Shown piece after piece: positions 21,533 through 50,389 of a stretch of 64,000 bases of DNA; within the stretch, counting starts at the first letter, position 1, and each line of letters opens with the position of its first letter. The translations under genes were made by a program, and so were the position numbers. The DNA comes from a virus. Taxonomy: Duplodnaviria; Caudoviricetes. The stretch lies in the IMG/VR virus record IMGVR_UViG_3300033072_000537, positions 27,573 to 91,572 of that record, one strand, 5' to 3'. Below the pieces are notes generated by a model. That model was given only the letters and a program-made list of their open reading frames with translations, was not told the origin of the DNA and did no database searches.

Positions 21533-23359
21533 ATGACTACCGACACCGCCCGCTCCGTAGCGTTTGATCCGCGCGCCCCCGAGGACGAGCGGTACGACGC
21601 CAATCTGGAAATCCAGCAGTCAGCCACGGCTGCCGGACCTCACGCGAAGTTCGCGGAGATCATCGACTTCATTAAGTCGGACTACGCCGAGCAGGACTTC
21701 ATGAAGTCCATAAGCGACGCGAAGATCGTTCAATTCCCATCGAAGCAGGCGCAGCAGAACCGGCCAGGCATGCAGTCCGTGTTTCTGGACGACATGCAGA
21801 TTTCCTGGCAGGGCGGCTACTTTGAGAAACAGGGCTCGCTCAACTTCGCCACGCTGCGCGCGATGGCCGAGGGCACGCCCCTGATTTCGTCGATCATCAT
21901 CACCCGCATGCGCCAAGTCGCCCGCTTCTGCGCCCCGCAGGAGTCTGGCGAGGGGCCGGGTTTCGCCATCCGGCACATTGAGAAGAATCACGCCCTGTCC
22001 GACGAGGAGCAGAACAGCGTCAATCTGCTGACGAAGTTTTTCCAAAACTGCGGCTGGGAGATGAACCCACGCAAGCGCCGTAAGCTCAAGCGAGACGACT
22101 TCTCGTCGTTCATGATGAAGTCCGTCCGCGACACGCTGGTCATGGACAACGCGCCCATTGAAACCGAGCTCAAGCGCGACCGTGATCTGGGCATCGATGG
22201 CTTCTATGCGGTCGATGGCGCGTCCGTGTTCCTGGTCAATGAACTAGACTACGACGGCGACGATGAGATTTTTGCCTGTCAGGTCGTCAATGGGCAGATT
22301 CGCGCGGCCTACAGCTACGACGATCTGATCCTGGTCCCGCGCAACCCATCCTCGTCGATTCTGACCGCTGGCTACGGCACGTCCGAGCTGGAATTCCTGG
22401 TGAAGATCGTCACCGGCTTCCTGAATGCGCTTGAGATCAACCTGTCCGGGATGAGCAAAAACTCAATCCCGCGCGGCTTCATGTCCCTGATCGGCAACTA
22501 CGACGAGCGCGACCTAGCTGCCTTCAAACGCTACTGGACCTCGACCGTCCGCGGCGTGCAGAACCGGTTCAACATGCCGGTGATGGTATCTAAGGACGCC
22601 GAGAGCAAGGCCGAGTTTGTCGAGATCGGCAATCAGGTCGATGAGGTGATGTACCAGAAGTGGATGGAGCTGCTCGGCGCTATCGCGTGCGCGGTCTATT
22701 CCATCGCGCCCGAGGAGATCAACTGGACCTCCTTTACGGCTTCCAAGTCGTCGCTATCTGGCTCCGATACGTCAGAGAAGCTGGCGCAATCAATGGACAA
22801 GGGCCTGCGCCCGCTGCTGTCCTACTACCAGAACCTTTTCACCGATTACATCCTGTCGGACTTCTCCGACAAGTACGTGTTCCGCTGGACCGGCCTAGAC
22901 GAGGAGGACGAGCAGCAGCGTTTCGAGGCGCGCAAGCTGGCGCAGACATGGAATGAATTCCGGGCGGCCGAGGGCCTCGAGGCCATCGAAGGCGACCAGG
23001 GCGAGATGCCGATGAACCCGTCGTTTATCGGCCCCTGGATGCAGATCAAGGGCATTGGCCAGCAGCAGCCCGACCAGGGCCAGGGCGAAGATTTCGGAAC
23101 ACCTCCCGAGGGAGAAGATGCGCAAGACGAAGCGAACGGCGATGCTGGAGGCCAAGACCAAGGCGAGCAGGGCGGACCCGATGAAGGCGGTTCGCCTGAT
23201 GCGGCGCAGGGCCAAGCGGATGCAGGAGAGGGCGGCGAGGCTGGCGGTGACGCTTGGTCGCCGGACTTCGGAAAGCAATCAGGACTCGACTTCGGCAAGG
23301 CATTGGCTGTGGGCGAGCAGTTCGGCCTGCCTGTAATGAGCATCTGGGGGGATCAGTGA
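21533..23359 (+). CDS. Portal protein
   Basis: Position after TerL; DTLVMDNAPIE…FYAVDGAS…GYGTSELE…IAPEEI…GLRPLL…TWNEFRAAEGLE; acidic tail. Confidence 0.9.
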   Translation: MTTDTARSVAFDPRAPEDERYDANLEIQQSATAAGPHAKFAEIIDFIKSDYAEQDFMKSISDAKIVQFPSKQAQQNRPGMQSVFLDDMQISWQGGYFEKQGSLNFATLRAMAEGTPLISSIIITRMRQVARFCAPQESGEGPGFAIRHIEKNHALSDEEQNSVNLLTKFFQNCGWEMNPRKRRKLKRDDFSSFMMKSVRDTLVMDNAPIETELKRDRDLGIDGFYAVDGASVFLVNELDYDGDDEIFACQVVNGQIRAAYSYDDLILVPRNPSSSILTAGYGTSELEFLVKIVTGFLNALEINLSGMSKNSIPRGFMSLIGNYDERDLAAFKRYWTSTVRGVQNRFNMPVMVSKDAESKAEFVEIGNQVDEVMYQKWMELLGAIACAVYSIAPEEINWTSFTASKSSLSGSDTSEKLAQSMDKGLRPLLSYYQNLFTDYILSDFSDKYVFRWTGLDEEDEQQRFEARKLAQTWNEFRAAEGLEAIEGDQGEMPMNPSFIGPWMQIKGIGQQQPDQGQGEDFGTPPEGEDAQDEANGDAGGQDQGEQGGPDEGGSPDAAQGQADAGEGGEAGGDAWSPDFGKQSGLDFGKALAVGEQFGLPVMSIWGDQ

Positions 23360-25098
23360 ATCCGAAGACCCCTGCCAAGCCGCAGAGCTCCCCGTCTAAG
23401 CGTGCAGGCTCCCCAGCCAAGCAGGCCCGCAAGCCCGGCGTAGAGGTTGGCGACCACGTTTATTTCAAGCTGGGCGACCAGCACACGCACGGCAAGGTCG
23501 TATGCCACGGCGAGCACGGCTGCCACATCGACCACGATGGCGGGCGATCCCGTGTCTATTGGTCCGACGTGCTCGGCCACCGTTCCCGGTCTGCCAAGTC
23601 GGCCAAGGTCATCGACCAGGGCGACGACGGATTCCTCATGGAGGACGACAAGGGGCGTCGCCGCTTTGTTGCCGGCGAGCTGCCGGAGCAGGAGCCCGAG
23701 AGGCGCGAGGACACGCCAGGCGACCACGCTGCCATTGCTGAATCCATCAAACAGGCTACCCCTATGACCAAATCAATTCTCCCGCCTGACGGCCGGATCG
23801 TGTTTCTCAAGGGCGGCCCGGTGGCTAACCGCCCCGGCCTGACCCAGAAGAAGATCACCGACAAGGCAGGCCACCAGACAACCCGCTTGGTGCGCACAAA
23901 TGCGCAGGCACCAGCGAACGATAACGGCGGTGGCAAAGACCCGGACCCGACTGATCACCGTGGCGCTGGCGCTGGTTATGGCACCCATGACATCCAGCCG
24001 GGTGCGCGGGTCAAGTTCCTTGCCGGCGAGCACAAGGGCGAGGGCGAGGTAACGGCAATCGGCAAGCACGGCCTGACGGCGAAAGACGCGACTGGGCGCG
24101 AGCACCAGGTTCATCACCATGAGGTGACGCACTACCAGCCCGCCCCGGACCAGAAGAAGCCCGATGTCGAGAATACCGTTCTTGGCAAGCAAGACCCGAT
24201 CCCGGCGGAGTCGTTCAAGGCGTCCGACTACGCCAAGTCGCACGATCAGGCTGACGTGAATGCCGACGCGATCCTGGCGCACTTCCCGGCCGACACAAAG
24301 GACCGGATTGCGGCTGCTCAGGAGCGCCTGAAAGACATCGAAGACACGATGTCGCAATACCAAAAGGACGGCGTCTGGGACGCAAAGCGGCAGGTTCTTC
24401 ACCACCAGATCATGGCGAACCTGTTCTCTCCCGAGGCGATCAAGAAGGCGACTCCGGCCGAAGGCCAGCAGCCTACGTTCATCATCTTGGGCGGGCGAGG
24501 CGGCTCAGGTAAGAGCTCGTTTGCTGGCGCGGTCTATGACCCCGAGAAGTTCCTCGTCCTTGATGCTGACCATATCAAGGGCATGATCCCTGAGTATGAG
24601 GGCTGGAATGCCGCGCAGGTCCACAACGAGTCCGGCGAGATTTTCGACAACGCCGTGCGTATCGCTCGCACCCTCGGGCTGAACGTCTGCCTGGACAAGA
24701 CGATGAAGACCGCCAAGTCGGCGATTGCTGACGTCCAGTCCTTCAAGGACGCCGGCTATCGCACCGAGGCGCACTACATGCACCTGCCTCGCCAGGAGGC
24801 CGCCAAGCGCGCCGTGGGGCGCTTCCTTGGTGGCGGCGAGAAGGGGCGCTACGTGCCGGTCGACGTCGTGCTGTCGAACACCACGAACGAGGACGCATTC
24901 GACCAGGTCAAGGGCATGGTTGATGCTTGGTCGTTCCGTGACAACAACGTACCCAAGGGCTCGAAGCCGATCCTGATTTCGCAGTCTGGCGGGGAGAAGA
25001 AGCCGGACAGCGTCGGCGACGTCAGCCAGGGCGATGCACCGGATTTGAAGAAATCCGAGGACGCAGGTAAAATGATCCTGCTTTTCAGGAGAATGTGA
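23356..25098 (+). CDS. Multidomain protein with C-terminal zeta-toxin-like P-loop kinase
   Basis: FIILGGRGGSGKS, LDADHIK, RAVGRF…GRYVP; GTGA overlap with portal. Confidence 0.8.
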   Translation: MNPKTPAKPQSSPSKRAGSPAKQARKPGVEVGDHVYFKLGDQHTHGKVVCHGEHGCHIDHDGGRSRVYWSDVLGHRSRSAKSAKVIDQGDDGFLMEDDKGRRRFVAGELPEQEPERREDTPGDHAAIAESIKQATPMTKSILPPDGRIVFLKGGPVANRPGLTQKKITDKAGHQTTRLVRTNAQAPANDNGGGKDPDPTDHRGAGAGYGTHDIQPGARVKFLAGEHKGEGEVTAIGKHGLTAKDATGREHQVHHHEVTHYQPAPDQKKPDVENTVLGKQDPIPAESFKASDYAKSHDQADVNADAILAHFPADTKDRIAAAQERLKDIEDTMSQYQKDGVWDAKRQVLHHQIMANLFSPEAIKKATPAEGQQPTFIILGGRGGSGKSSFAGAVYDPEKFLVLDADHIKGMIPEYEGWNAAQVHNESGEIFDNAVRIARTLGLNVCLDKTMKTAKSAIADVQSFKDAGYRTEAHYMHLPRQEAAKRAVGRFLGGGEKGRYVPVDVVLSNTTNEDAFDQVKGMVDAWSFRDNNVPKGSKPILISQSGGEKKPDSVGDVSQGDAPDLKKSEDAGKMILLFRRM

Positions 25099-25283: not shown

Positions 25284-25309
25284 AAAACCCCGCTTCGGCG
25301 GGGTTTTTT
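25282..25309. terminator. Bidirectional terminator
   Basis: AAAAAA-CCCCGC-TTCG-GCGGGG-TTTTTT between convergent genes. Confidence 0.9.
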
Positions 25310-27827: not shown

Positions 27828-27864
27828 CGAAATCTCCTAGTCAAAAAATGGATGAAACGCCGCG

Positions 27865-27893: not shown

Positions 27894-27899
27894 GATATT

Positions 27900-27921: not shown

Positions 27922-28806
27922 ATGGACAATGAAACTGCCAATGCTTGGAAATCAGCTTATCTCGACGAGGGCTTGCCGGTCAGGAAGATCGCTGCGCGGT
28001 TCGGTGCGTCAGAATGGATGGTCGCAACCATACTCAAGGAAATTGGAGTTGAAGTAAAAAACAGACGGTACAAGGACAAGACTCTGAGAGTTGAGGCCGC
28101 TAGGCTGTACGTAGAAGAGCGAAAAACGACTTATGAGATCGCGGCATTGTTGAAGGCGTCTCCGGCAACCATTTTAAGGTGGCTTCACGATTTGTCAGTG
28201 CCAATTAGGTCGCCGTCTGAGGTTGCTATACTGCGGTCTGAAAATCCAAAGAAAAACGGCTATCTACGAAGTCTTCGTGCGGCATACCAGTCCAGCAAGA
28301 TGGGGTGCTGGTTTATTGCACACTCGCGATACGAGGTCGCGCGAATGATGCAACTTGATGGCGACGATGATGTTGCCTCATGGAAGAGATGCGATCAGTG
28401 GGTTAGCCTGCCTGGCGGAAAGCGGTACATGCCAGATTTCGACGTTACGTACCGTACCGGTCGGCGCGTCATTGAAGAGGTCAAGCCGTCCCATCTTTTG
28501 ACCAATGAACTTGTTCTCCTAAAGGCGCAATGCGCGAAGGAATTTTTCTCGAAAGAGGGCGCGGAATACGTGTTTGTTACTGAGCACGAAATAGGTAAAG
28601 AGCGGATCAAAAACGTCGACACGGACCTGATTAGTTTCGACATCAAGCGCGCAGCAAAGCCAAAAAAAGACAACTCTGCGTATCATCGAGCGTATTACCA
28701 CAACGTAATCAAGAAAAATCCTGAGAAGATGGCTCGATTGGCAGAGATAGCTCTCGCTTCTTACCACAGGCGAAAACTATCGAAGGAGGATGGTCGTGCT
28801 GATTGA
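27922..28806 (+). CDS. TnsA-N-like PD-(D/E)XK endonuclease with tandem HTHs (putative homing endonuclease)
   Basis: SRYE…LD…YMPDFDV…IEEVKP…K…FVTE; more AT-rich than flanks. Confidence 0.8.
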   Translation: MDNETANAWKSAYLDEGLPVRKIAARFGASEWMVATILKEIGVEVKNRRYKDKTLRVEAARLYVEERKTTYEIAALLKASPATILRWLHDLSVPIRSPSEVAILRSENPKKNGYLRSLRAAYQSSKMGCWFIAHSRYEVARMMQLDGDDDVASWKRCDQWVSLPGGKRYMPDFDVTYRTGRRVIEEVKPSHLLTNELVLLKAQCAKEFFSKEGAEYVFVTEHEIGKERIKNVDTDLISFDIKRAAKPKKDNSAYHRAYYHNVIKKNPEKMARLAEIALASYHRRKLSKEDGRAD

Positions 28807-29950
28807 TGTTTCTCGCGTCAGCGACGAATGCTGCAACCATGCCATCGACGAACTATTCGCGAAGGCTGCCGGCGACCCACCAAATATCTGGGAGCCACAC
28901 CATAGCCCATTGGTTCGCCGGCTGATTGAGCTCTTCACCGAGCGTGGCCTAATGCGCATCGGTGCCTTGCAGCTTGAGCTGCAGAAGTGGCTCGACGGCG
29001 AGCGCCACAAGGAAAGCGAGCGGTCCATCGTCCCGCCTGGCTACGTCGAGCGCTGGACGCCCGGCGAGCTTGAGCTAGTCCGCCTCTACCTGGAGAGCTT
29101 GCCGCCGGCCGAATTCACCGCCGACGACTGGATGCTCTGCATCGACTTCCTGCATCAGCGCTATTTCCCGCAGGACGAGCTCCGCGCCGAGGCCGAGTGG
29201 CTGGCTGTGCGGGCCTCAATCATGGGGCGCGTGCAGGCCCGCATGGGCGAGGTCAGCGAGCGCCAGGCCGACGCCCTGCTGATGGCCGCCCCGGCGACCG
29301 TCGAGGAGGTCGGCGCTCGGTTTGGTATGACCGCGGCACAGTCGGCCATGCTTCGCTGGGGGCGCACGCACTGCGCCGAGAACATCGTCACCGTGGCCGA
29401 CGGCATCCGCCAGCGTATCAAGGCCGTGGTGCTCGACTACCAGCGCGGACTGGCGCTGGGCGACCCGACTATCCGGGAGAGCATGCAGACGCGGATCGCC
29501 GACAAGTTCGCCACGGCCAACGCCGACTGGCGACGCATCGCTGTTACCGAAGCGTCAGAACTGATGAATCAGGGGTTGATCGCGTCGCTTGAGCAAGGAA
29601 CTCGGGTCCGCCGACTGGAGCAATACAAGGGGGCCTGTCAGTTTTGCCGAAAAATCGACGGCATGGAATTCGAGGTTATCCCTGCGTCTGAGGCCGCAGG
29701 CAAAGACCCGTGGAAATTCGTGTGGGCAGGAAAAACGAATATCGGGCGCTCGGCTGCTCCAAGGAAGCGTGTAGGTGGAGAACTGGTAGATCGCGAACCG
29801 CATGAAATGTGGATTCCAGCTGCTGGTGTACAGCATCCTCATTGCCGGGGGCTTTACATTGCCCTCAAAGAGCCAGACAGCGCTGGCGATGCTGAATTCA
29901 CAGAATGGATGAAGCGGACCCTGGAGACGACCAATGCCGACAGGGACTAA
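28790..29950 (+). CDS. Head morphogenesis protein (Mu gpF/SPP1 gp7-like)
   Basis: WRRIAVTE…ACQFC…HPHCRG. Confidence 0.8.
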   Translation: MVVLIDVSRVSDECCNHAIDELFAKAAGDPPNIWEPHHSPLVRRLIELFTERGLMRIGALQLELQKWLDGERHKESERSIVPPGYVERWTPGELELVRLYLESLPPAEFTADDWMLCIDFLHQRYFPQDELRAEAEWLAVRASIMGRVQARMGEVSERQADALLMAAPATVEEVGARFGMTAAQSAMLRWGRTHCAENIVTVADGIRQRIKAVVLDYQRGLALGDPTIRESMQTRIADKFATANADWRRIAVTEASELMNQGLIASLEQGTRVRRLEQYKGACQFCRKIDGMEFEVIPASEAAGKDPWKFVWAGKTNIGRSAAPRKRVGGELVDREPHEMWIPAAGVQHPHCRGLYIALKEPDSAGDAEFTEWMKRTLETTNADRD

Positions 29951-30590
29951 GCTAACGCACGAAGACGCCGTATCAAGGTTGCGCGCCAAGAGCATAACTC
30001 TCTTGTCTGAATTTAAGGGTTCGCAAAAGCCAATTCTTGTCCGTTGTGACAAGCACGGCGATGAATACTGGATTCGCGCTCACGGACTGGTTTGCGATGT
30101 GAAGCGAATGAGGTGCTGCCAGCGCGAAGATGCTAGGGAGCGAATGACCGGCAGATTCGTATCAGAGGAGACGCGCGCGAAGATTAGCGCTTGGCAGCAA
30201 GACGGGAAAGCGCCTTGGTCTGGAAAAACTTTGTCAGAAGACCACAAGGCAAAGATTCGTCACGGAGTCCACGTTTCCTATGACGCCATCGATCCATTTA
30301 TTGCACTTGCCAAGGCTGGAAAGACCGCTGGCGTCAAAGGCTGGTTCTACATCGCCAAGATGGATAACGGTCTGCTCAAATTCGGAAGCACCCGCTTCGA
30401 CGACTATGAGAAAATGCGCTTCCGTCATTTTGAGCGAGCATTTGGTACTTCATCCGAAGAATTGTTGACGCGAGTTCTCGTTGACGACGCCGGCGCCTAC
30501 GAAGCCGCGATGATGCAAAAGCACCGCGAGCACTGGGCACATGGCGAGTTTTTCAAAGATTTCCGTTCGGAGCTGAATTGTGCAGCCTAA
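29934..30590 (+). CDS. Putative homing endonuclease (NUMOD3-like repeats + GIY-YIG/T5orf172-like domain)
   Basis: CDKH Zn motif, SEETRAKIS and SEDHKAKI, GWFYIA…LKFGST…GEFF. Confidence 0.6.
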   Translation: MPTGTKLTHEDAVSRLRAKSITLLSEFKGSQKPILVRCDKHGDEYWIRAHGLVCDVKRMRCCQREDARERMTGRFVSEETRAKISAWQQDGKAPWSGKTLSEDHKAKIRHGVHVSYDAIDPFIALAKAGKTAGVKGWFYIAKMDNGLLKFGSTRFDDYEKMRFRHFERAFGTSSEELLTRVLVDDAGAYEAAMMQKHREHWAHGEFFKDFRSELNCAA

Positions 30591-32247
30591 GATCGTGTTC
30601 CTGAAATCGTCGCCGGCTGCCGAGCCCGTCGACCTCACCACAACCCCCGTCCGCGCCGACGAGCCTACCCCGGCCCAAGCCGAGTCCGGCAACTACGCCA
30701 AGCGCGCGATGCCGTGGAAGGGCCTAACCATCCGGATCGAGAACGAGGCAGGCAGCGTGCGGCGCGGCACCGATCCTGGCGGCAAGGCCTGGGAGACGCA
30801 CATGCCGCACGCCTACGGCTACATCGTGGGCTCAATGGGAGTGGATGGCGACCCGGTCGATGTCTATGTCGGTCCGTTTGCCGAGACTGCCGAAAGCGTG
30901 TTTGTCGTCCATCAGCGCCGAGTCGGCGACTGGGACAAGTACGACGAGGATAAGGTTTTTGTTGGCTTCCTGAACGAGGACGAAGTCAAGCAGGCGTTTA
31001 TCCAGTGCTACGACGATCCGCGCTTCCTGGGGCCGATTACGGCTATGCCGGTGGGCGAGTTCGTCGAGAAGGTGAAAACGACCAAGGAGAATCCGAAGAT
31101 GATCAAGTCTGCCCCCCGCGTGGTGATGGCTAAGTCGCACGTCGAAGCCTACACCAAGAAGGATGGGACGTTTGTGGCGGCGCATGAGGATTCTAGGAAG
31201 CCAAAACAGGTAAAGTCCATCGAGCACATTCGCCAGCTTGCCGACCAGAATGGAGGCAAGATTTACGTCAGGTGGTCAGTGCATCATTCGCACGACATGA
31301 AAGACGGAGCAGTTTCCCGTGATTACGCAAATGGCGGGGTGCACGGAGGCTTATCTGCCGTGCCAATTACTTCCGACATGGAGGATCACGAAATTGCGAA
31401 ATACGCGAAGGAATACGGCTTCCTCAGAATGAAGGACAGCAAGATAAAGCCGCACTTCTACGCTGGTGAGAAGGTCGGAGAAGATTCTGATGGGTATGAC
31501 TCAATACGCCCAACGCGCCACATCGGAACTGGGCATGCGTCTTTCGTCAAGGAGCTTGATGCAGGGCTGGCGGAGAAGCTGCGCCTCAAAAGAAATATTG
31601 AGAAGGGAGAAAAGTTACTCGCTGGGGACATGGATGTTGTCGCCCGAAAGATTTGGGAAAAGTCAGTGGCAGAGGATAAGGAAAAGCTCGCCGGACTAGG
31701 CGGAAAACTGATGTCGAAATCCATCATCTTCCTCAAGGCCAAGCAGAAGGGCGACGACCGAACGCCGGATATGTTCGCGACGCACGTCGAGGCGCGCACC
31801 AGGAAAGACGGGCACGTCCAGAACTACCATGTTGCGAACGCCAAGCCTGACACCGTCACCGAGCCGCGCGCCGAGCTGGTGAAGGAGCACGAGCGCCTGG
31901 TGCATGTGCTGGAGAGCCCCAGCCACGCCGACGACAAGGCCGAGGCGAAGCGACAGAAGGCCGAGCTCGAGGAGTACAAGGCGGGCGGGGATGCCGGTGT
32001 CACCGTCACTAGCAGAAAGAAGGTCCGCGACCCGCTCGAAGGCACGCAGACGCACGTCACGCTCTCGAACGGCAAGACGCACCGCCTGCAGCGCCTCAAC
32101 GCGACCGAGTCCATGGGCCTGCCGGGCTGGCATGACGTCGATGGCGGGTTCCTGGGAGACAACGAGCAGAGCGCTATTGATGAGTTGGTGCGGCGGGCGG
32201 GATCGCGCCCCGCACCAATGATCAAATCAATCCGCAGGATGAAATAA
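30580..32247 (+). CDS. Polyvalent protein with inorganic-pyrophosphatase-like (InPase) domain and additional modules
   Basis: YGYIVGSMGVDGDPVDVYVG…DEDKVFVGF; several tag motifs. Confidence 0.8.
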   Translation: MQPKIVFLKSSPAAEPVDLTTTPVRADEPTPAQAESGNYAKRAMPWKGLTIRIENEAGSVRRGTDPGGKAWETHMPHAYGYIVGSMGVDGDPVDVYVGPFAETAESVFVVHQRRVGDWDKYDEDKVFVGFLNEDEVKQAFIQCYDDPRFLGPITAMPVGEFVEKVKTTKENPKMIKSAPRVVMAKSHVEAYTKKDGTFVAAHEDSRKPKQVKSIEHIRQLADQNGGKIYVRWSVHHSHDMKDGAVSRDYANGGVHGGLSAVPITSDMEDHEIAKYAKEYGFLRMKDSKIKPHFYAGEKVGEDSDGYDSIRPTRHIGTGHASFVKELDAGLAEKLRLKRNIEKGEKLLAGDMDVVARKIWEKSVAEDKEKLAGLGGKLMSKSIIFLKAKQKGDDRTPDMFATHVEARTRKDGHVQNYHVANAKPDTVTEPRAELVKEHERLVHVLESPSHADDKAEAKRQKAELEEYKAGGDAGVTVTSRKKVRDPLEGTQTHVTLSNGKTHRLQRLNATESMGLPGWHDVDGGFLGDNEQSAIDELVRRAGSRPAPMIKSIRRMK

Positions 32248-32874: not shown

Positions 32875-35800
32875 ATGCTGATCCTGTTTTTGAAGTCCCA
32901 GATGGGGCTGTTCGACATGCCGACGCTGATCTCTGGCAGCGTCAAGAAAGACGGCACGATCACTGCGCCACACATCGGCATTCGCAAGAAGCGGATTGCG
33001 CCGCCAGCACCCGTGCAGGCCGATCTGTTTGGCGGCCACGAGGAGGCGAAGAAGACCCGCCGCACCGCACTGGAGGCCCTGCTGCGCAAGTACGGTGGCG
33101 CTGCCCAGGTAGCAGCGATGATGCGCGGTGTTGCCGAGGATAAGCGCGCCGACGCCATCGCGAAGATGGCGAAGATCGCCAAGGTGACGCCGGCCGAGAT
33201 GCAGGCTGCGCTCGACGCCGCCAAGCCGGAAGACGCGCCGCAGATGGACCTATTCGCGGCGACTGTCGCCAAAATCGACACGTCGGAGAAACGTGTCGAT
33301 GAAACGCCGAAAACGGAACACGTCGCCCCTCCTGCCACCGACGCCGCCTTGGTCGAATACACGACCAAGAAGGGCAAGAAGCTGACCGGCATCGTCCGCT
33401 CCGATCTGACCAAGGAGCAGGCGAAGGAAATCGACCCCTACACCTTCTGGCACAAGAACCCGAACGGCTGGTTCATCCGTGAGAAGCACATCGGCCAGTC
33501 ACCTGCCGCCTCTGATCAAAACCCGATCAAGACCGAAACCCCCGCCGTTGCTCGCAAACCGAAGCCAGCGCCGGTCGAGGATCAAAACCCGGTCAAGAAC
33601 GATTCGGGCGTATCCGAGCGCCACGCCGCCGACCCGCTCGATTTCGGCGTCAAGCCCGGCACCAGCAAGGCCGACCGCCGCCGCCTGAATGCCGCTGCTG
33701 CGGCCCTGGTCGATGAGAAAACGCCGGGCGAGATGACTGGCCAGGACCGCGCCGTCCTGCGCCAGTACAGCGGCAACGGTGGCTGCGGTGACAGCCTCAA
33801 CGAGTTCTACACCGACCCCGCAATCGCCAAGGCAATCTGGGACGTGGCAGGCCGCCTAGGGTATGAATCCGGCACCTGCCTGGAGCCGTCCTGCGCTACC
33901 GGTGTTTTCCTGCACACCGCCCCGGCTGGCTTCAAGATTACCGGCGTTGAGCTGGACCCGACGTCGGCAAAGATCGCGACGGCGCTGCATGGCGACCGGC
34001 ACGAGATCGTCAATGCCAGCATGGAGCGCTTCGCCACTCAGGACATGCGCCAGTTCAACGTCGTGGTGGGCAATCCGCCCTACGGCCCGCGCGGCATCCT
34101 GGCAAAGGACGACAAGGTCGAGCTCTCGAAGGCCGAGGAGTATTTCATCGACACCAGCCTGGACAAGACCGCCCCGGGCGGGCTGTGCGTGATGGTTGTC
34201 CCGGCCGGGATCATGGACAGCAAGAACGGCCGCAGCTTCCGCGAGCGCATCCTGCGCAAGGCTGAATTCCTGGGCGCGCAGCGCATGCCGAACACGGCGT
34301 TCGAGCACACCCATACCGACGTGACGGCCGACATCATCTATTTCCGCAAGCGGCCTGACGACGTTGCCGGTGCGCTGGCGACCGTGGGTCAGGACACCTT
34401 GCAGCAGCTGGGTGTCTGGGACGATGAATTCCTGGCCGGCACGTACTTTGATGGGCGCGGCGCTGAAAACGTGTTTGGCGAGGTCGGCACGGCCAAGCGC
34501 GCATTCGGCGAGATTTACACGGTCAATGGTTCCATGCGTGGCGTGCCCGAGGAGGTCGCCAAGTTCGAGCCGCACGCCAAGGGCCTGCCCGTGTCTGTGC
34601 CGGACATCCTGGAGGCGCTGGGCGATGACGAGGCCGCCAAGAACCGCGCGCTGAACGGAGCCGAGAAGCGTCCTTACCAGGACACCGCCAAGGTCGGCGA
34701 CATCCGCGTGATCGACGGCGTGTCCTATGTCCTGCAGGGCAACCCGCCGCGCTGGCACCGCGTCGACGAGGCGCTCCAGTCCGATGCGGTGACCGAGGCG
34801 CAGGAGCTGGCCGAGGCCATCGACCGTTTGATGACTGGGCGCGCTGCTGACCGTCAGAAGCTCGAGGCCGACGTCCGCGCTTGGGTTGAGAAACACGGTA
34901 TCCCGGCCAAGAACCCGAACCTTCTAGTCGCCGCCGCGACCGACAAGACGCTCTACCGCCTGATCGGTGCCGTGGGCAAGGACGGCAGCCTGTCTGACGT
35001 GGTCACAGGCCGGTACTTCAAGGCCAACGAGGAGGCAGGTTTCGACACCATCGCCCGGGCGCTGGCGCTGAACCACGAGACAGGAGCATTCACGCATACA
35101 GAGCTCGCCGAGTCGCTAGGCCAAGACCGCGAGGAGGTTCTCGACCGTCTCGTCGCCGATGCGAATTACGCCTACCTGCCGAATGCCGACCTGGGCGCCT
35201 ATGGCGCTTGGGCACCGATGGACGTCTATCTGACCGGTGAGCTCTGGCCGAAGCTGGACAGCGTCCGGGCGGAACTGGCACGCGAGGGTCTGCCCGAAGA
35301 GGTCCGGGGCAAGCTCGAGCACCAGGCCAGCCGCCTCGAGGCCACCATCGATCCGAAGTCGCTCGAAGACGTCGAGATCATGCTCAACTCGGCATTCCTG
35401 CCGACCAGCGTGATTGAGGCTTGGATGAATTCCAAGATCGCGGCATTCAAGGGCGAAAACCCGACCGCATCCTACGCTCAGAGCATGAAGGAAGACGCCA
35501 AAGTAACGTTCGACAACGGCGTCTATTCGATCAGCGGCGGCATGTGGGGAGATGCCAACCTCCTGGACAAGTACCTGAACCGTACCGGCGTCCGGAAGGA
35601 CGACATGCCGCGCATTGAGCAGATGAACGAGGAGTTCAAGGACTGGCTCTGCTCATCGTCGCTGCGTGACCAGGTCGAAGAGCTCTACAACCGGAAGTTC
35701 CGCGGCTTCGTGCAGCGCGATTTTTCCAAGGAGCCTATCGACGTCCCGGGCCTGGCGAACCATGACCAGGTCAAGGACTACCAGTGGCCGGGCCTGCGCT

Positions 35801-38800
35801 GGGCGCTCGCCGCCGGCAAGGGCATCATCGCCGACGACGTGGGCCTGGGTAAGACCCTGCGCGGCCTGCTGCTGGTCCGCATGGCGAAGATCGAAGGCCG
35901 GGCGCAGAAGCCGAGCATCGTTGTGCCCAAGTCCGTGCTGGCTAACTGGTACGCTGAATCGCAGAAGTGGTTCCCTGGCTCCAAGGTGCTGACCATCGGC
36001 GCCACGTTCGAGATCAAGGACGGCAAGCTGGTCGGCAAGGACGACAACGCCAACGAGCGCAAGCGCAAGTACCACGACCTGTCACAGAACGACTACGACT
36101 TCGTCATCATCAGTGAGCCGGCTTTCGAGGAGCTCGACCTCGATCCGATCACCAAAGAGGAATACTACAGTCAGGATTTCTGGGTGCAGCGCGGCGAGTC
36201 GCTGGGCAATGCCGGCGACAAGCGCCGCAAGAAGATCAAGGAGCAGTACGAGCAGGCTATCGCCAAGCGCGAATTCGCCGACCGCACTGACGCGATCTAT
36301 TTTAACGAAATCGGCATCGACATGCTGGTGGCGGATGAAATGCACCACCAGAAGAACCTCTATGCTGCCAAGGCCCGTTTCGGCGACAGCCCGAAATTCC
36401 TCGGCGGCCAAGGGCTCTCAAACCGGGCGCTGGACTTCAACCTGAAAACCCGCTGGCTGCTGCAGAACCACGGCAACAAGGGCGTCTATGGTCTGACCGC
36501 GACCCCGACGAAGAACAGCCAGCTCGAGGTCTATTCGATGCTCTGCCACATCGCACCGGAGGCCTTCGAGAATATCGGCATCCGCAACAGCGAGGAGTTC
36601 CTCGACCGTTTCTGCGTGTTCCAAAACGATACCATCCTGAACAAGCGCGGCGAGATCGAGGACGCCATCGTCACGGCTGGCTTCAAGAACATGAACGAGC
36701 TGCGCGAGATCATGCGCCGCTACATCGCCCGCAAGACGGCTGACGACGTCGGCCTGGTGCTGCCGAAGGCCGACCCGCACATGCACTTTGTCGAGATGAC
36801 GCCGGCACAGCAGGAGGTCTATGCGACCTACCGCGAGATGCTGGAGAACGAGGCCAAGGGCAAGGACGCGACCGGCGACAGCCATATCTTCTCCATCATG
36901 GACAAGATGAACAAGGCGGCACTCGACCTGGAAATCCTGGACCCTGTGACGCACAAGGGCCAGCCGAGCCCGAAGTACAAGAGTCTGGCGAAACACATCG
37001 TCGAGGGCCTTGCCGACGGCGGCCAAGTCGTTTTCTCCGACTACATCGACTCGCACGACAAGATCGTCGATGCGCTCGTCGAGAAGGGCATCCCACGCAA
37101 CCAGATCGCCATCATCAACGCGCAGGTGGCAGGGTCAGCTGTGAAGCGGCAGAACATCGCTGACGCATTCAACGCTGGCAAGATCAAGGTCGTCATCGGT
37201 AACACGGCGACCATGGGCGAGGGCATCAACCTCCAGAAGGGCACGGCTGACATTCACCACCTCGACCTGCCATGGGAGCCGGCCAGCATGCAGCAGCGCA
37301 ATGGCCGCGGCGTCCGCCAGGGCAACACGATGGCGTCGGTTCGCATCCATACCTACCTGTCCAAGGGCTCGTTTGACGGTTACCGCTACCAGTCGATTGC
37401 GGCCAAGAAGGACTGGCAAGACTTACTCTGGAAGGGCGGCGACCGCGTCGACAACCTGGCGCGCGAGGGCAAGTTCAGCCGTCAGGACATCCAGATCATG
37501 ATGGCCGCCGACCCGGATGCTGCGCGCGAGAAATTCGAGAACGACAAGGCCCTGGCGCTGGCGCAGCACGAGGCCGGCGAGCGCGTGAAGGCCGCCGAGC
37601 AGTTCGTCCGCTTCCAGGAGCTCAAGGCCGGTTACAAGGCGCTGAAGAACAAGGGCTCGGCCAGCGCCGCCCGCCTGAAGCGCAAGCTCGAGGACGCAAA
37701 GACCGGCCTGAAATCTAACCGGTTCTTTACCGCCAAGTCGGCGCTCGATAGCGACGAGGCGACCGTGATCCAGCCGGAAACCGGCGAGGCGTTCCATGCT
37801 GGCGTGGCGTTTGAGGCGGTGGCGGACGACGGTACCAATGAGGGCAAGTTCGTTGTGACCGGCGTCAATCTGCGCGGCGGCACTGTTACCGTTCGTCCGT
37901 ATGCGGCGACGACCGGCGGGCGATCCAAGACGGTCAAGCTGGCCGACCTGTCGCATGGTGTGACGCCGTTCAAGTTCGATGCGGATGCCGAGGCGAAGGA
38001 AGTCGCCGATCACCTCGAGCGCGCAGCAGCGGACCGCGTGAATAACATCGCGCACTGGGACGACCTGAAGACCATGCCATCGGCAGTCCTGGAAGCGTCG
38101 AACGAGTCGATCCAGCGTCAGCTTTTCAAGGGGGCCAAGGACTACTCTGTCCGCTTCCCCTATGGCGACATCCCGATGATCAACAAGGAAACTGGAAAGG
38201 TTGAGCGCGTCAGCCAGTACAGCGTCAAGGACAAGGAGGCAACCCACGACTTCCTGCTGCCGACCGATGCCAACAAGGAAAAGGCTATGCGGGACTGGGC
38301 AGAAGAGGAGCGGACGAAGCGCTACGGGCAGACCACCTACCAGAAGCGTAAAAACAGCCGGACCGAGTGGAAAAACGTCGTCCAGTACCCGAACGCTGAC
38401 TACAACAGCAAGAGCCGCAATCCGATGACGTCCATCCTCGAGGGCATGTCTCCCCCGAAAGACCCGGTGGCGTCGTCGTTAGGACGCGAGTCGCCGTTGG
38501 TCAAGGAAGCCCGTGAGCGCTTCGAGCGCGAGCAGCTCGAGCGAGTGCGGCGAGCCCCGTCCTTCAAGGAAGCGCTAGCCGAGGCCGTGCCGCTGACTTC
38601 TTTCTCGGAATATGGAAGCACAGATAGCGCGTACCCGATTTACCACAAGCGCGCCCTGGCCATGCTCTGGGCTCGCGCAAAGCACGAGGGAGTGCTGGAC
38701 CACGACTGGGAGCAATTCGTGCCGACTGAGGCCAGCCCGTACAGCAGCAGAGAACTGCCAAAACATAACAAGTACACCTGGCATGCTGGCGGCTACGCCA

Positions 38801-46024: not shown

Positions 46025-47084
46025 AGCGTACGTCCGTCAGCATCAGCGCAAGCTGAAATCAGGGAAAGTTGTCGAGGTTGTTGCCCACAACGACAACCGG
46101 ACGGCAGTTGCTGTGACTCGGAGAAAGCAGGTATTGTTTGATCGGCATATTGAGGCGATGAAACAGTCCTATCTGTCAGGAGAGACTGTGAAGCAAATTG
46201 CCTCACGGGTCGGCATCAATGAGATTACAGCCAGGTCTTGGCTGATCGACGCTGGCGTATATGAGCACCAACGAGGCAGGCTTTCTCGTGAGCAGGAAAG
46301 GTCTATTCTCGAGTCCTACCTGTCGGGTGATTCTCTCGGTGAAATCGCGACGAGGCATGGAATAGATCGGACAACTGTCTCGCGAATTGCGCAGCGGAAT
46401 GGTGCGCTTCGGTCAAAGTCGGAATCGCAGTCTGTTCGTGCTGCGCGCGACGGCGTTGGTCTTGATCAGTTTGGAAAAAAAGGAGCCTTTCACTCCGCGA
46501 AGATGAATCTGTGGGTGCCAACGGACAGTCTCTACGAGTACGCCAGGATGGAGCAGCTCGACGCAGATGAAAGTGTCGTGTCTTGGAGGCGGTCTAATGC
46601 GCGCATCAAGTACGAGTTTGAAGGAATACAGCGGACCTACGTTCCTGACTTAGAAGTCATTCTCGTCAGTGGTCGTGTTCGAATCGAAGAAATAAAGCCA
46701 AACAAATTCGCCTTGTCGCCGCTCAATCTGGCAAAGTTCTCTGCCGGTCGTAAGTTTGCCAGTGACAACGGTTACGAGTTCAAGGTCGTTACGGAGGACG
46801 ATATTGGCCGATCAGCAATTGACAGGGCGGCCGGATCGACGGTTACGAGCATACCTGAGTATGAGCGTAAGCGTAGGCGGGTCGAGGCTTCGCAAAGGGT
46901 TGTAGCCAAGATGACCCCAGATCAAAAATCAGAGTATTTGAAGAAGGCCAAAGAGCGGGAAAAAGCGAAACGCGATGCCATGACGCCAAATGAAAGGGCT
47001 GCGTACAATGCCAAGGCAAGGGAGAGGAGGATGCGAAAGAAAATGGCGAAATCGATGGTCGTCCTGTTCTCGAAGGCCGCATGA
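45993..47084 (+). CDS. TnsA-N-like PD-(D/E)XK endonuclease with HTHs and tag motifs at both termini
   Basis: SLYE…LD…YVPDLEV…IEEIKP…K…VVTE; KVLFFKAY N-terminus; MAKSMVVLFSKAA C-terminus. Confidence 0.8.
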   Translation: MSIETKVLFFKAYVRQHQRKLKSGKVVEVVAHNDNRTAVAVTRRKQVLFDRHIEAMKQSYLSGETVKQIASRVGINEITARSWLIDAGVYEHQRGRLSREQERSILESYLSGDSLGEIATRHGIDRTTVSRIAQRNGALRSKSESQSVRAARDGVGLDQFGKKGAFHSAKMNLWVPTDSLYEYARMEQLDADESVVSWRRSNARIKYEFEGIQRTYVPDLEVILVSGRVRIEEIKPNKFALSPLNLAKFSAGRKFASDNGYEFKVVTEDDIGRSAIDRAAGSTVTSIPEYERKRRRVEASQRVVAKMTPDQKSEYLKKAKEREKAKRDAMTPNERAAYNAKARERRMRKKMAKSMVVLFSKAA

Positions 47085-47338: not shown

Positions 47339-47345
47339 TTCTGTC

Positions 47346-47361
47346 GTCGTGACGGCATGCT
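47346..47361 (+). promoter_or_regulatory. Late-type promoter (leaderless)
   Basis: GTCGTGAC-GG-CATGCT, 7 nt before ATG 47369. Confidence 0.75.
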
Positions 47362-47368
47362 GTAGGGC

Positions 47369-48253
47369 ATGCAAGATAGTGAACTTCTAGCCTCGATTCC
47401 TGACTTTGTCAGCTTCGACACGATGATGAAGGCTTCCCCCGTAGAAGAAGGGGGCGAGCGCTTTATCTATGTCGAGGCCAGCAAAGAGTCCCGCGACCAG
47501 CAGGGCGAGATCGTGCTGGCGAAGGCACTCAAGGACTCCGTCGATGTCTTCCGCAAATTCGGTGTGGTCGACATGGACCATAAGAGTATGCCGTCGGTCG
47601 CGAAGATGTACGGCATTACGGACCCTGAGTCTTGGATCATCGGGCAGCCCGCCGAGGTGCGGTTCAACGGCGACGTGACTTTCGTAAAGGCGCAACTCCG
47701 ACGCGGCGATACTCCGCTGGCAGAGCGCGCTAATCGCGTCTGGGATGGCTTGACCAAAGTCAGCCCACCAGATCGCTACTATGCGTCCGTTGGTGGTTCG
47801 GTGCTCGGCAGAGAAGTCCGCATTGACCCAGTCACCAAAGAGCGCGTCCCGGTCATTACCAAGACGCGCTGGAACAATCTGGCGCTCAGCCTGAACCCGG
47901 TAAATCCTGACCTGAACCCGGCGACGACTACTCCGGTCGGCACGTTCGCGAAGTCGTTGGGCGGGTTCGTTGTCGCCAAGGCGCTAACTGCCGGCTACGC
48001 CACGGATTCCGCCGCCATGACCGGCGGGCAGGCCCTTGCGACACAGTCGCTCGACCGCCGCCCCAAGAGTTATTTCGACGCGCGGCACAAAATCTCGGCC
48101 GCAATGACCTCCGGCAAGCTGAAAAATGCCGGTATGAATGAGATCATTGCTTACGCCCAAAAAGAATTCGGCATGTCGCTCGATGAGAGCGCCGAATTTT
48201 GCGAGCGCTTTCTGCGCGACATCCACGATAATCTGAAACGGAGAAAACCATGA
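47369..48253 (+). CDS. Prohead (maturation) protease
   Basis: ASKESRDQQGEIV…DMDH…IG…YASVGG…LALSLNPVNP; upstream of scaffold and capsid. Confidence 0.85.
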   Translation: MQDSELLASIPDFVSFDTMMKASPVEEGGERFIYVEASKESRDQQGEIVLAKALKDSVDVFRKFGVVDMDHKSMPSVAKMYGITDPESWIIGQPAEVRFNGDVTFVKAQLRRGDTPLAERANRVWDGLTKVSPPDRYYASVGGSVLGREVRIDPVTKERVPVITKTRWNNLALSLNPVNPDLNPATTTPVGTFAKSLGGFVVAKALTAGYATDSAAMTGGQALATQSLDRRPKSYFDARHKISAAMTSGKLKNAGMNEIIAYAQKEFGMSLDESAEFCERFLRDIHDNLKRRKP

Positions 48254-48852
48254 GCTTTGAAAAATTGCTCGAAGAACTCGACGTCATGGCAAAGGCCATG
48301 GGCGACGAGGACGACAACCAGGATGACGACAACATCCAGGCTGCTGCCGATGCTGCTGCCGATGCTGCTGGCGACCACGCCGAGCCGGATGGTGACGAAG
48401 ACGAGGACGGCAATGAGCCGATGGGCAAGTCTTTTGCCTTCACGCTGGAAGACGGCCAGGTCGTCGAGGCCATCGATGGCACCGAGCTGGTGAAGTCGCT
48501 GATTGGCCGCATGGATTCCACCGATACCATGATGACCAAGGCGCTCACACAGACTCTCGAGCTGGTCAAGTCGCAGGGCGAAATGATCAAGTCGCTGCGC
48601 GGCGAGATCAAGAAGCTGGCAGGCGAAGGCCGTGGTCGTAAAGCTGTTGTGACTGTCGCCGAAAAGGTTCCGGCAGGCCAGCAGATGACCACGTCCGAGC
48701 AGCCCGGCCTGACTACTCAGGAATTTTTCGCCAAGGCAAATGCCGCCTTTGGCGCCGGCCGTATCACCGGCCAAGAACTTACCGTGATCGATGTGTCCCT
48801 GCGCTCCGGTATGGCAGTTGACCAAGGCCTTGTTGCCAAGGTCGTCGGTTAA
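48250..48852 (+). CDS. Putative scaffolding protein
   Basis: Acidic/coiled-coil protein between protease and capsid; six xxK-S/A repeats. Confidence 0.7.
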   Translation: MSFEKLLEELDVMAKAMGDEDDNQDDDNIQAAADAAADAAGDHAEPDGDEDEDGNEPMGKSFAFTLEDGQVVEAIDGTELVKSLIGRMDSTDTMMTKALTQTLELVKSQGEMIKSLRGEIKKLAGEGRGRKAVVTVAEKVPAGQQMTTSEQPGLTTQEFFAKANAAFGAGRITGQELTVIDVSLRSGMAVDQGLVAKVVG

Positions 48853-48874
48853 TCACCCATTGGAGAAATCCTAA

Positions 48875-50389
48875 ATGAATGCTCAGACTCTGATGACCCA
48901 GTTCGCTGGGGTTAGCCCGACCAGCGGCAATAACGCTGTATTGGGCGGCTCTGTCGGCGGCTCCCTGGACGCCGTCGAAGAGCTCAAGAAGGCCTTGCAG
49001 GCCAGCGACTACCAGACCGACGTTGCTACCCTCTCCGGTGGCGGCGCTCTCGGCGTGCAGTCTCTGGATACGGCCATGAAGACCGTTGTGCAGGAGCAGG
49101 AACATTTCGTTCTGTTCAAGAAGCTCCAACAGACCAACGCAACCAACATCGTCGACGAGTACGTTCGCCAGAACTCCGTCGGCGGCTTCCTGGGTGGCTC
49201 CACCAACACCCAGATGGGCGTCGTTCGCGCTGCTCAGGGCGACTACAGCCGTGAAATCGGTCTGGTCAAGTTCCTGGCGTCTCTCCGCCAGGTCGGTTAC
49301 GTCATGAACATCGGCAAGAACATCATCGACGCGACCGCTGCTGAAGAGCGCAACGGTGCTTTGCAGCTGCTGACCGATGCCGAGTACCTGCTGTTCCACG
49401 GCAACTCCGCTGCTTGCCCGACCCAGTTCGACGGCATCTTTACCCAGCTCGACAAGGAAATTTTGGCCGGCAATATGTCCGACGACCACGTCATCGACAT
49501 GGACGGCGCCAAGCTCGACTCCGTCGATCCGTTCGTCAAGCTGCAGGCTGCTGTGAAGCGCTACGGCTCCTGGGGCACCCTGACTGACACCTTCCTGACC
49601 ACTGGTGTGCAGGGTGACATCAACATGGGCCTGGACCCGGCATTCCGCTGGAGCCCGCAGGGTAACAACACCCCGCTGATCGGCGCCCACGTCGATGCGA
49701 TCCGCCTGTCCGGTGGCCGCCTGGCTACTCAGGAAGACACCTTCCTGCACGATGGCGACTTCCCGATGGCGAAGCCGTTCGAGCTGACCTGGCCGTCTAT
49801 TGCCACCGCCAACGTGGCATTCAAGCCCGCCAGCGTGGCCGTCGATGCTTCCGGTTCCGACACCGCCTCCCGCTTCACCACTGCCCGCGCCGGTAACTAC
49901 TACTACGCTGTGGCAGCCATCGGCGGCGAAGGCCAGGGCTACACCGAGGTCGTCAAGTCCAGCCAGACCGCTGTCGCCTCCGGCAAGAAGGCCGTGCTGA
50001 CGATCACCAAGTCGTCCGCCGGCACCGAAACCGGCTATGCCATCTACCGCTCGCGTCAGAACGGCACCAACGACACCAGCGACTTCCGTCTGGTCAAGGT
50101 GATCCCGAAGGCCGCTGGCAATACCACGACCTTCACCGACCTGAACCGCGACATCCCGGGCTCTGTGTCGATCCCCTGCCTGAACATGGCTCCGGCTGCC
50201 GATGCAATCGGCTGGCGCCAGTTCCAGCCGATGACCAAGATTCCGCTGCCGTTCGGCGTCGGCGGCATGCCGGTCATCTCCTGGTTCCAGTTCTTGTTTG
50301 GTTACCTGCGTATCACCAAGCCGAAGCATCACGGCTACATCAAGAACGTGGTGCCGACCAACGCGACCTGGCAGCCGTTTGCAGCCTAA
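48875..50389 (+). CDS. Major capsid protein
   Basis: 504 aa, strongly biased codons, KKAL…GGGALGVQSLD N-arm, LFHGNS…FDGI; followed by terminator. Confidence 0.9.
   Translation: MNAQTLMTQFAGVSPTSGNNAVLGGSVGGSLDAVEELKKALQASDYQTDVATLSGGGALGVQSLDTAMKTVVQEQEHFVLFKKLQQTNATNIVDEYVRQNSVGGFLGGSTNTQMGVVRAAQGDYSREIGLVKFLASLRQVGYVMNIGKNIIDATAAEERNGALQLLTDAEYLLFHGNSAACPTQFDGIFTQLDKEILAGNMSDDHVIDMDGAKLDSVDPFVKLQAAVKRYGSWGTLTDTFLTTGVQGDINMGLDPAFRWSPQGNNTPLIGAHVDAIRLSGGRLATQEDTFLHDGDFPMAKPFELTWPSIATANVAFKPASVAVDASGSDTASRFTTARAGNYYYAVAAIGGEGQGYTEVVKSSQTAVASGKKAVLTITKSSAGTETGYAIYRSRQNGTNDTSDFRLVKVIPKAAGNTTTFTDLNRDIPGSVSIPCLNMAPAADAIGWRQFQPMTKIPLPFGVGGMPVISWFQFLFGYLRITKPKHHGYIKNVVPTNATWQPFAA

Follow-up and report, generated by a model that had tools for sequence, protein, structure and literature searches.

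Why should five unrelated proteins encoded between the portal and prohead protease genes of one phage carry nearly the same short peptide? The DNA concerned is a 64,000-nucleotide stretch (hereafter the window) taken from one phage genome of 91,572 bp and ∼60% G+C (IMG/VR record IMGVR_UViG_3300033072_000537), of which it makes up the right-hand 64 kb, and the part reviewed here runs from the portal gene (21512–23359) to the gene for the major capsid protein (48875–50389). The head and tail genes are similar to those of a group of 90- to 95-kb myophages comprising Bordetella phage PHB04, Pseudomonas phages Jeremy, Dolphis, and Touem01, Aeromonas phage ST4, Escherichia phage ECML-606-1, and Yersinia phage fHe-Yen8-01. 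A sequence-only reading of the window had proposed that the peptide, a hydrophobic run ending in Lys, is an address label by which the enzymes are loaded into the prohead, trimmed by the head protease, and injected with the DNA. Comparison with related phages makes it reasonably probable that the peptide is a load-and-trim label for capsid cargo, akin to the capsid-targeting sequence (CTS) of phage T4 and read by a protease of the T4 gp21 fold that would cut after Lys.

A hydrophobic tag shared by unrelated proteins

We defined a strict form of the tag, [ILVM][ILVM]F[LF]K[SAG], and searched the entire genome (91,572 bp) for it, translated in all six frames. Six matches were found, all of them in plus-strand coding frames between the portal and protease genes, where composition-preserving shuffles of the 94 called proteins give a mean expectation of 0.03 and a maximum of 1. 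Every peptide quoted in the sequence-only reading is present where it had been placed, and the sharing of one tag by five unrelated portal-to-protease proteins is confirmed. As the motifs were drawn up only once the sequences had been inspected, nominal significance is inflated, but conservation in relatives provides independent confirmation: one short terminal peptide is common to five unrelated proteins in the window and to five in PHB04. Four of the six strict copies lie 1 to 9 residues from the earliest plausible start (in the InPase, DarB-like, helicase, and TnsA-like proteins), and the remaining two are internal (in the zeta-like and InPase proteins). The synonymous codons differ among the six copies, which argues for selection on the peptide, and an origin as a DNA-level repeat was rejected on account of these differences.

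The tags conform to the consensus (R/K)-x-h-h-h-h-K-(S/A), wherein four hydrophobic residues (h) stand in a row and Arg, Lys, or Pro is often in front. All of them finish in h-x-K-[S/A], and hence each is also a candidate cleavage site (predicted cuts are marked ↓ below). The internal and C-terminal tags are preceded by a second M-x-K-[S/A], as in MSK↓SIIFLK↓A, MTK↓S...IVFLK↓G, and MAK↓SMVVLFSK↓A, such that cutting at both positions would release the tag as a small peptide.

Tagged proteins of the window

The tagged genes all lie on the plus strand. Overlapping the portal gene at a GTGA is the gene for a post-portal zeta-like protein (23356–25098; Zeta_toxin, E = 2e-22). This protein has no N-terminal tag. 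It begins with a conserved portal-adjacent domain, followed by the tag segment MTK↓S...RIVFLK↓GG (23764–23817), a second SH3-like segment, the zeta-toxin kinase, and a C-terminal tail, LKK↓S...KMILLFRRM (25045–25095).

The InPase protein (30580–32247; InPase, E = 4.5e-41 at residues 32–165) is a three-module polyprotein. GTG 30580 is its first possible start, as a stop lies two codons upstream, and the N-terminal tag reads V-QPK-IVFLK↓SS (30583–30612, with IVFLK↓S at 30592–30609). The border with the middle module carries MIK↓S..VVMAK↓S and a hairpin sequence described below (31099–31185), the border with the third module carries MSK↓SIIFLK↓AK (31711–31743) and another hairpin (31780–31830), and the protein ends with MIK↓SIRRMK (32218–32244). 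These tags fall outside the Pfam domain envelopes. The G+C content at third codon positions (GC3) is 0.5 to 0.7 in the middle module (31150–31700) and 0.8 to 0.95 in the flanking modules, which suggests that the middle module was recently acquired between two tags.

A DarB-like protein with an N6-methylase and an SNF2 helicase (32875–39180; Pfam N6_Mtase, Eco57I, SNF2, and Helicase_C) starts with MLILFLK↓SQ (32875), which is followed by QMGLF, a variant of the hairpin (32938–32973), and QADLF. The start at 32875 is backed by PHB04 and by one IMG/VR locus (L014). The protein is 27% identical to P1 DarB over 99% of a 1,233-residue query, and its N-terminal ∼300 residues are shared only by PHB04 in the phage collection. 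The next gene encodes a Ulx-like partner of DarB (39177–39500, plus strand; phrog_1629, Ulx-like anti-restriction, E = 5e-13), and the same DarB-Ulx gene order is found in P1, PHB04, and Thermus phage Lalka8.

An SF2/SNF2-type helicase of 1,511 residues (41489–46024; Pfam Helicase_C, ResIII, and DEAD) carries the N-terminal tag MRKILFLK↓AI (41489–41518). Twenty-two non-identical orthologues from PHB04 and IMG/VR, and more when near-duplicates are included, have a tag 1 to 12 residues after the start. These ∼1,500-residue helicases also share a C-terminal tail, (L/M)-D-D-T-G-(L/V)-A-x-F-(L/I)-x-Q-(R/K)...(G/S)-L-(F/L), as a second terminal motif, located at 45990–46021 of the window and also seen in loci L002, L046, L056, and L058.

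The fifth protein is a TnsA-like nuclease with a helix-turn-helix domain (45993–47084; Tn7_TnsA-like_N, E = 2e-11). It has the N-terminal tag TKVLFFK↓AY at 46005, with a tag and hairpin variant spanning 46005–46088, and the C-terminal sequence MAK↓SMVVLFSK↓AA (47043–47081). Its GC3 is ∼0.57 throughout, tags included, compared with 0.75 to 0.85 in the neighboring genes, and resembles that of the other homing-type nuclease genes of low GC3 in the window, which begin at 27922 (TnsA-like), 29934 (NUMOD3), and 40840 (HNH). The paralogue at 27922–28806 has no terminal tags. The tagged gene is probably a mobile gene of the homing type, and its product, which the sequence-only reading had listed among the loaded enzymes, is no obvious effector. 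An insertion of the TnsA-like gene into a resident tagged open reading frame (ORF) was also considered but is not supported, given that the low GC3 spans the whole gene with its tags.

Short peptides of another kind follow the tag in the DarB-like protein and other cargo, namely QMGLF, QADLF, QLALF, QLDLF, QLDMF, and PDMF. Those of the window lie at 32893–32916, 33016–33030, and 31762–31773, and none follows the helicase tags. These peptides resemble the bacterial beta-clamp-binding pentapeptide, QL[SD]LF.

Conservation of the tag in related phages

Both the gene order and the tag of the window recur in PHB04. There, the helicase is tagged with MKPILFLK↓A, the DarB-like protein with MIILLTK↓A, and a RelA/SpoT-like protein with VIVFLK↓A, and a stand-alone InPase has the N-terminal tag VGAVVLLK↓A together with a C-terminal tail. 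The post-portal protein of PHB04 has the same N-terminal domain and an internal tag, RVLLFFK↓A, followed by a RelA_SpoT domain in the place where the window has zeta, and the C-terminal tail is kept (KMIMLIRRT versus KMILLFRRM in the window). In general, the tag peptide is conserved among phages whose DNA is only 65 to 75% identical or cannot be aligned.

To extend the comparison, 80 related IMG/VR loci were gathered by protease alignment, each with 10-kb flanks on both sides. On the upstream side of the protease (0.67 Mb in total) the strict tag occurs 34 times, whereas the 0.69 Mb on the downstream side contain no strict match. Relaxed tags number 57 upstream and 10 downstream, and in 42 of the 80 loci a relaxed tag is present upstream of the protease. 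In nearly all matches, the first in-frame start codon is 1 to 12 residues before the tag. A C-terminal variant, in which K↓[S/A] is followed by a hydrophobic run and terminal basic residues, occurs in 10 of 416 upstream ORFs and 1 of 662 downstream ORFs, although these numbers are small. A chance origin of the tag was rejected on the basis of the shuffles together with this upstream/downstream control.

The tagged proteins of these loci include InPase, Zeta_toxin, and PBECR2 domains, and several have no recognizable domain. Across all phages compared, the tagged cargo comprises InPase, Zeta_toxin, RelA_SpoT, PBECR2/3, Acb1, ART-PolyVal, and LPD3, which is the repertoire of the so-called polyvalent effectors, and in proteins with several tags these lie between the Pfam domains. 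Jeremy, ST4, ECML-606-1, fHe-Yen8-01, and Touem01 have nothing between the portal gene, the gene for a MuF-like protein, and the protease gene, but one or two tagged genes are present at other places in each of their genomes. Among them, gp129 of fHe-Yen8-01, an ART toxin of 2,146 residues, starts with MLVLAK↓AL, and gp131 starts with MLK↓A and the hairpin. Both proteins are labeled "particle associated protein" by the GenBank depositors, which is the sole support of an experimental kind for the packaging of tagged proteins.

A predicted cleavage motif in the head proteins

We counted the short motif [MLIVF]xK[SA] and derived its expectation from 200 shuffles. The scaffolding protein (48250–48852, plus strand) has seven such motifs compared with 0.56 expected, a number that none of the 200 shuffles reached. 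The protease has 5 compared with 0.88 (0/200), the InPase protein 6 compared with 1.74 (0/200), the portal 4 compared with 1.0, and the capsid protein 4 compared with 1.1. Enrichment is limited to the proteins of the head, the InPase protein counted among them, and the whole proteome has 79 compared with 53.6. In the scaffold alignment of eight phages, which has a mean column identity of 49%, K15, K60-S61, I113-K114-S115, and K162 are among the 18 invariant columns.

The motif is also found where trimming of head proteins is predicted. For the major capsid protein (48875–50389, plus strand; phrog_752; SPO1 Gp6.1, 9vel, E = 8e-22; homologous to the phage 812/K capsid), a propeptide of residues 1 to 38 is predicted, with the cut at ELKK↓ALQAS (48980–49006). 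All nine capsid proteins compared have a variable leader of 25 to 38 residues, and between it and the N-arm, which is highly conserved, lies L-x-K-[A/S]-L-(Q/E)-A; the SPO1 capsid aligns LNK-AL at the predicted cut. In the portal of the window, FMK↓S (21698) is near the N terminus and FGK↓A (23291) is ahead of the C-terminal tail. Correspondingly, all seven portals compared have E-F-x-K-[A/S] near the N terminus and h-x-K-[A/S]-F-G-L-P ahead of a short C-terminal tail.

The prohead maturation protease (47369–48253, plus strand; phrog_1028) has Ser140 and His71 as its catalytic residues, and both are invariant in 30 sequences. Its own motifs are MMK↓A (47423), FAK↓S (47945), and VAK↓A (47972), of which K21-A22, K195, and K204 are likewise invariant and A205 nearly so. 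An AlphaFold2 model (predicted local distance difference test score, pLDDT, of 75) finds T4 gp21 (5jbl) as its best match in the PDB (E = 3e-6, probability 1.0), and the alignment with the phage K protease by hhalign has E = 2.5e-4. In phage K, the capsid chain of PDB entry 9row equals that of 5lii minus its first 24 residues, where the precursor reads ...EDVVK↓SFQTGYG at position 24/25, and the phage K scaffold contains seven V-x-K-S motifs.

The conservation of the motif in scaffold, capsid, portal, and protease, together with these phage K chain ends, points to cleavage after Lys. We consider it very probable that h-x-K↓[S/A] is the cut motif of the prohead protease where the site is exposed, and the cleavage code proposed in the sequence-only reading is in this respect supported by comparison, being conserved in the scaffold, ahead of the N-arm of the capsid protein, and at either end of the portal. 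The sites in scaffold, capsid, and portal need only one hydrophobic residue, at P3, whereas a tag has a run of four. Scaffold sites lack the additional hydrophobic residues that the tags have at P4 and P5, and this suggests that the tags have a second function.

The protease also contains a copy of the capsid N-arm after its K↓A, in which KALTAGYATD...QSLD (47978–48055) resembles KALQASDYQTD...QSLD of the capsid protein (48983–49069). This segment is disordered in the AlphaFold2 model, and in the phage K protease FMK↓S is likewise followed by a capsid N-arm copy. A protease profile even matches the capsid genes of ST4 and ECML-606-1, with E ∼1e-8. Mimicry of the N-arm probably lets the protease co-assemble with the shell.

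The tag is often part of a tag and hairpin module

In many relatives, the tag runs directly into a sequence with the look of a basic beta-hairpin, H-[VI]-x-x-Y-T-R-K-D-G-T-x-V-x-x-H. Three such hairpins are present in the window, at 31135–31185 and 31780–31830 and, as a variant, at 32938–32973. A 36-column profile of tag and hairpin was compared with 1.84 billion cluster representatives (clusters at 50% identity) and matched 1,239 proteins with E ≤ 1e-3, of which 156 have E ≤ 1e-10. Among the best 150 matches, 76 have the module within the first 30 residues and 35 have at least two copies. In these best matches, K-[S/A/T] stands directly before 148 of 168 hairpins, and in 66 of the 148 the Lys follows a run of four hydrophobic residues; the hydrophobic stretch ahead of the hairpin varies from 1 to 4 residues. 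This corrects the sequence-only reading, in that the tag makes up half of a broader module, which is present in more than 1,200 protein clusters.

The proteins matched by the profile include InPase, PBECR3, LPD3, Acb1 (anti-CBASS; CBASS, cyclic-oligonucleotide-based antiphage signaling system), and ART-PolyVal domains. They are found in phages of the same clade and in a different phage, which encodes giant proteins in an array, and one bacterial protein, outside any phage context, has repeats of the hairpin only. In an ST4-like phage, three genes start with M-x-x-Q-F-D-L-L-K↓S-H-I-D-A-Y-T-R-K-D-G, of which one contains a further copy internally. The module is not covered by any Pfam model, even at E ≤ 10, and a literature search with the strings YTRKDG, TRKDGT, and YTKKDG found no relevant paper. 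PBCV_basic_adap was considered on account of a weak match on one protein with hairpin repeats and was dropped when the match was not reproduced on the module itself. One metagenomic relative encodes, in a portal/MuF-like context, a protein of 1,098 residues with a tag and hairpin, an Acb1 domain, and a second tag and hairpin. Judged by this layout, it would be a capsid-delivered anti-CBASS nuclease.

A broader proposal, which we regard as possible though doubtful, is that hhhhK↓[S/A] plus hairpin is an undescribed portable module meaning "package and cut here," used by a large group of phages, through which the head protease loads, splits, and delivers polyvalent effectors, with the strand as the address and the hairpin as the mature N terminus. 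On this proposal, some 10 residues would suffice to load an arbitrary protein into such capsids.

A model for tag-directed loading

We propose that the portal-to-protease genes would be expressed late, together with the head genes. The tag, placed at the N terminus, between the modules of a polyprotein, or, as a variant, before a hydrophobic and basic C-terminal tail, would dock as an edge beta-strand on a component of the prohead core and carry the enzyme inside. Candidate partners for docking are the scaffold, the protease, the MuF-like protein, the portal, and the inner surface of the capsid. The protease, with its herpesvirus/T4 gp21 fold and its Ser140/His71 pair, would then cut after Lys at exposed h-x-K↓[S/A] sites, thereby degrading the scaffold, stripping the capsid propeptide and the portal ends, clipping leaders and tails, and separating polyproteins into effectors. 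The mature enzymes (the DarB-like protein with Ulx, the second helicase, the zeta kinase, the InPase, and others) would leave the head with the DNA and counter host defenses. Of the original proposal, the modular peptide label on late head-region genes, conserved across the clade on unrelated cargo, is borne out, and docking, tag cleavage, packaging, and injection in this phage are inferred.

Several observations weigh against this model. No receptor gene co-varies with the cargo, as cargo-free members of the clade have the same core head genes; by the same token, the receptor should be one of the docking candidates named above. The bodies of two giant enzymes show no enrichment of the short motif (8 compared with 6.4 expected, and 5 compared with 4.1), and there is no depletion in them either, so that cleavage would have to depend on context. 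The helicase and InPase N-terminal tags lack a hairpin, and thus the module is not uniform. The hairpin in turn occurs without the hydrophobic stretch, including in the bacterial repeat protein, and it or other regions could be the real packaging determinant. Moreover, the phage K cut site (VVK↓S) is inferred from deposited chain sequences, and the particle-associated labels in fHe-Yen8-01 are depositor annotations.

Three other explanations must be weighed. The peptide might be only a processing site, for the prohead or a host protease, with packaging brought about in another way: by the hairpin, the post-portal adaptor domain, the MuF-like protein, or Ulx, or through entrapment in bulk. This account draws on the ending of every tag in h-x-K-[S/A], the location of internal tags at module borders, the zeta-like protein with its portal-adjacent domain in place of an N-terminal tag, and the constancy of K[SAT] before hairpins while the hydrophobic stretch varies. 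Yet trimming 8 to 10 residues from an N terminus would have no evident purpose unless the leader acts first, the four-residue hydrophobic run is kept in the tags where other sites make do with one residue at P3, and the T4 leader is both an address and a cleavage site (PMC9024508). On balance, a role in processing alone appears unlikely.

We consider it more unlikely still that the tag, the hairpin, and the D-[LM]-F motifs act after injection by binding DNA or a host factor, such as the beta sliding clamp, and that they are common because effector modules were shuffled along with them. The clamp-like peptides after the tag in the DarB-like protein and other cargo would be explained in this way, as would the basic character of the hairpin, its multiple copies in some proteins and N-proximal position in others among the best 150 matches, and its presence in a non-phage context. 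However, the tag is found only on late genes, in phages that have this head module, and is mostly terminal. It also ends in the motif of the head protease, whose recurrence in scaffold, capsid, portal, and protease would be left unexplained. Loading by the tag and a later action of the hairpin or DMF motifs could nevertheless be compatible. A feature at the level of nucleic acid or translation, such as a DNA repeat, a recombination linker, or a signal in the start region, is very improbable. Some tags do lie at module borders, one of which has a GC3 shift, and some of the genes have short leaders behind a common DNA motif, TGTCGTGAC (described below), but the six copies differ in their synonymous codons, occur internally and at C termini as well, and encode a peptide that persists where the DNA itself has diverged.

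Comparison with known systems

The CTS of T4, found on IPI to IPIII and Alt and removed by gp21, is likewise a short N-terminal leader on unrelated proteins that ends at the motif of the head protease. In both systems the cleavage motif riddles the scaffold, and the window protease has the gp21 fold. In contrast, the T4 leader, MKTYQEFIAE, ends in Glu, whereas the tag of the window is a hydrophobic strand ending in Lys; gp21 cuts at L/I-x-E↓, whereas K↓[S/A] is the predicted specificity here. The cargo of the window is also different, consisting of giant multi-domain anti-defense enzymes, with tags that may be internal or C-terminal and are often coupled to a hairpin. The system of the window would work like the T4 CTS without being a member of it by sequence.

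In P1, DarB and Ulx are virion components, and the first 30 residues of DarB direct a reporter into the capsid, although the authors found no consensus among the Dar N termini (PMC9024508). The window has a homologous DarB with the methylase-helicase core (27% identity), followed by a Ulx-like gene and adjoining the portal. The systems differ in that one tag is present on many proteins here and in that Glu120 precedes the cut in the capsid protein of P1 (E↓S). A relationship between the tag and the targeting signal of P1 DarB was rejected, there being no sequence similarity between the N termini. No DarA or Hdf homologue was noticed in the window, where DarA, Hdf, and DdrA/B were not systematically sought.

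With the Herelleviridae (phages K/812 and SPO1), the window shares a homologous capsid and a distantly related protease, and the capsid leader of phage K is apparently removed after Lys (VVK↓S), as is predicted for the window. Phage K also has the V-x-K-S-rich scaffold and a protease with a capsid N-arm copy after K↓S, but its portal gene is directly followed by the protease gene. The cut specificity of the window would be of the Herelleviridae type, and the hydrophobic tag and hairpin module would be additions relative to such heads. Encapsulin cargo peptides offer a further parallel, as they have a hydrophobic core with Lys and dock unrelated enzymes inside an HK97-fold shell. They are usually C-terminal and are not known to be cleaved, and encapsulin shells are not known to have a portal, protease, or DNA.

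The polyvalent proteins of Iyer et al. (2017, PMC5512222) are proposed to be MuF- or portal-fused effectors that are predicted to be injected and self-processed by zincin-like peptidases, and term searches of that paper, in which most of the domains seen here are named, returned no description of a shared leader peptide. InPase, PBECR, ART-PolyVal, RelA/SpoT, zeta, DarB-like, and LPD3 domains adjoining portal or head genes are common to both sets. In the window, however, the MuF-like protein is separate and has no effector domain, and the effectors carry the tag instead.

Implications of a probable capsid-loading label

To our knowledge, the choice of proteins to be carried in the capsid is understood for very few systems, namely T4, P1 DarB, and the P22 ejection proteins, and for polyvalent anti-defense effectors we know only of the proposal of fusion to MuF or portal. 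If the tag is a loading label, then the T4-type principle of capsid targeting extends to a different phage lineage, and injected proteins could be predicted by a simple, testable sequence rule. The label would also account for the way in which polyproteins become separate effectors. A small tag would also become available with which foreign proteins could be packed into capsids of phages whose hosts are Pseudomonas, Bordetella, Yersinia, and E. coli. Tag and hairpin, which are absent from Pfam, would mark the Acb1, ART, zeta, RelA/SpoT, and nuclease effectors as probable weapons of the first minute.

Neighboring genes and a putative late promoter

Among the portal-to-protease genes there is also a block of minus-strand genes, located between the zeta-kinase gene (23356–25098) and the protease gene. 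A stand-alone protein of 386 residues that resembles MuF and SPP1 gp7 minor head proteins is encoded on the plus strand at 28790–29950 and is found in all relatives compared. It has no match in Pfam or PHROG, and a PDB fold search was empty, but its AlphaFold2 model (pLDDT 84) has 40 matches with E ≤ 1e-3 in BFVD to minor capsid or head morphogenesis proteins. In ∼20 members of the clade, this protein begins with M-x-(L/F)-(F/L)-(L/I/V)-D (28790–28810 of the window). The M-x-LFLD start is a hydrophobic strand like the core of the tag, except that Asp stands where the tag has K-[S/A]. As a lead only, this N terminus resembles an uncleavable tag and could use a docking site in common with it.

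The portal gene (21512–23359, plus strand) was identified by its Pfam and PHROG portal matches. Four exact copies of TGTCGTGAC are present, at 21508, 27899, 41466, and 58677, all on the plus strand and 17 to 24 nucleotides upstream of late-gene starts: those of the portal, the TnsA-like protein, the helicase, and the ORF at 58701. Copies with one mismatch, at 17476, 47345, 55282, and 61995, lie 16 to 38 nucleotides upstream of plus-strand ORF starts, including those of the terminase (17501) and the protease (47369). In PHB04 and the IMG/VR loci, too, the sequence stands ahead of tagged genes, and there its in-frame read-through appears as "CRD." The motif probably serves as a late promoter whose leader is very short. 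It also suggests that the portal gene starts at ATG 21533 and not at GTG 21512, and ATG 21533 is probably the true start.

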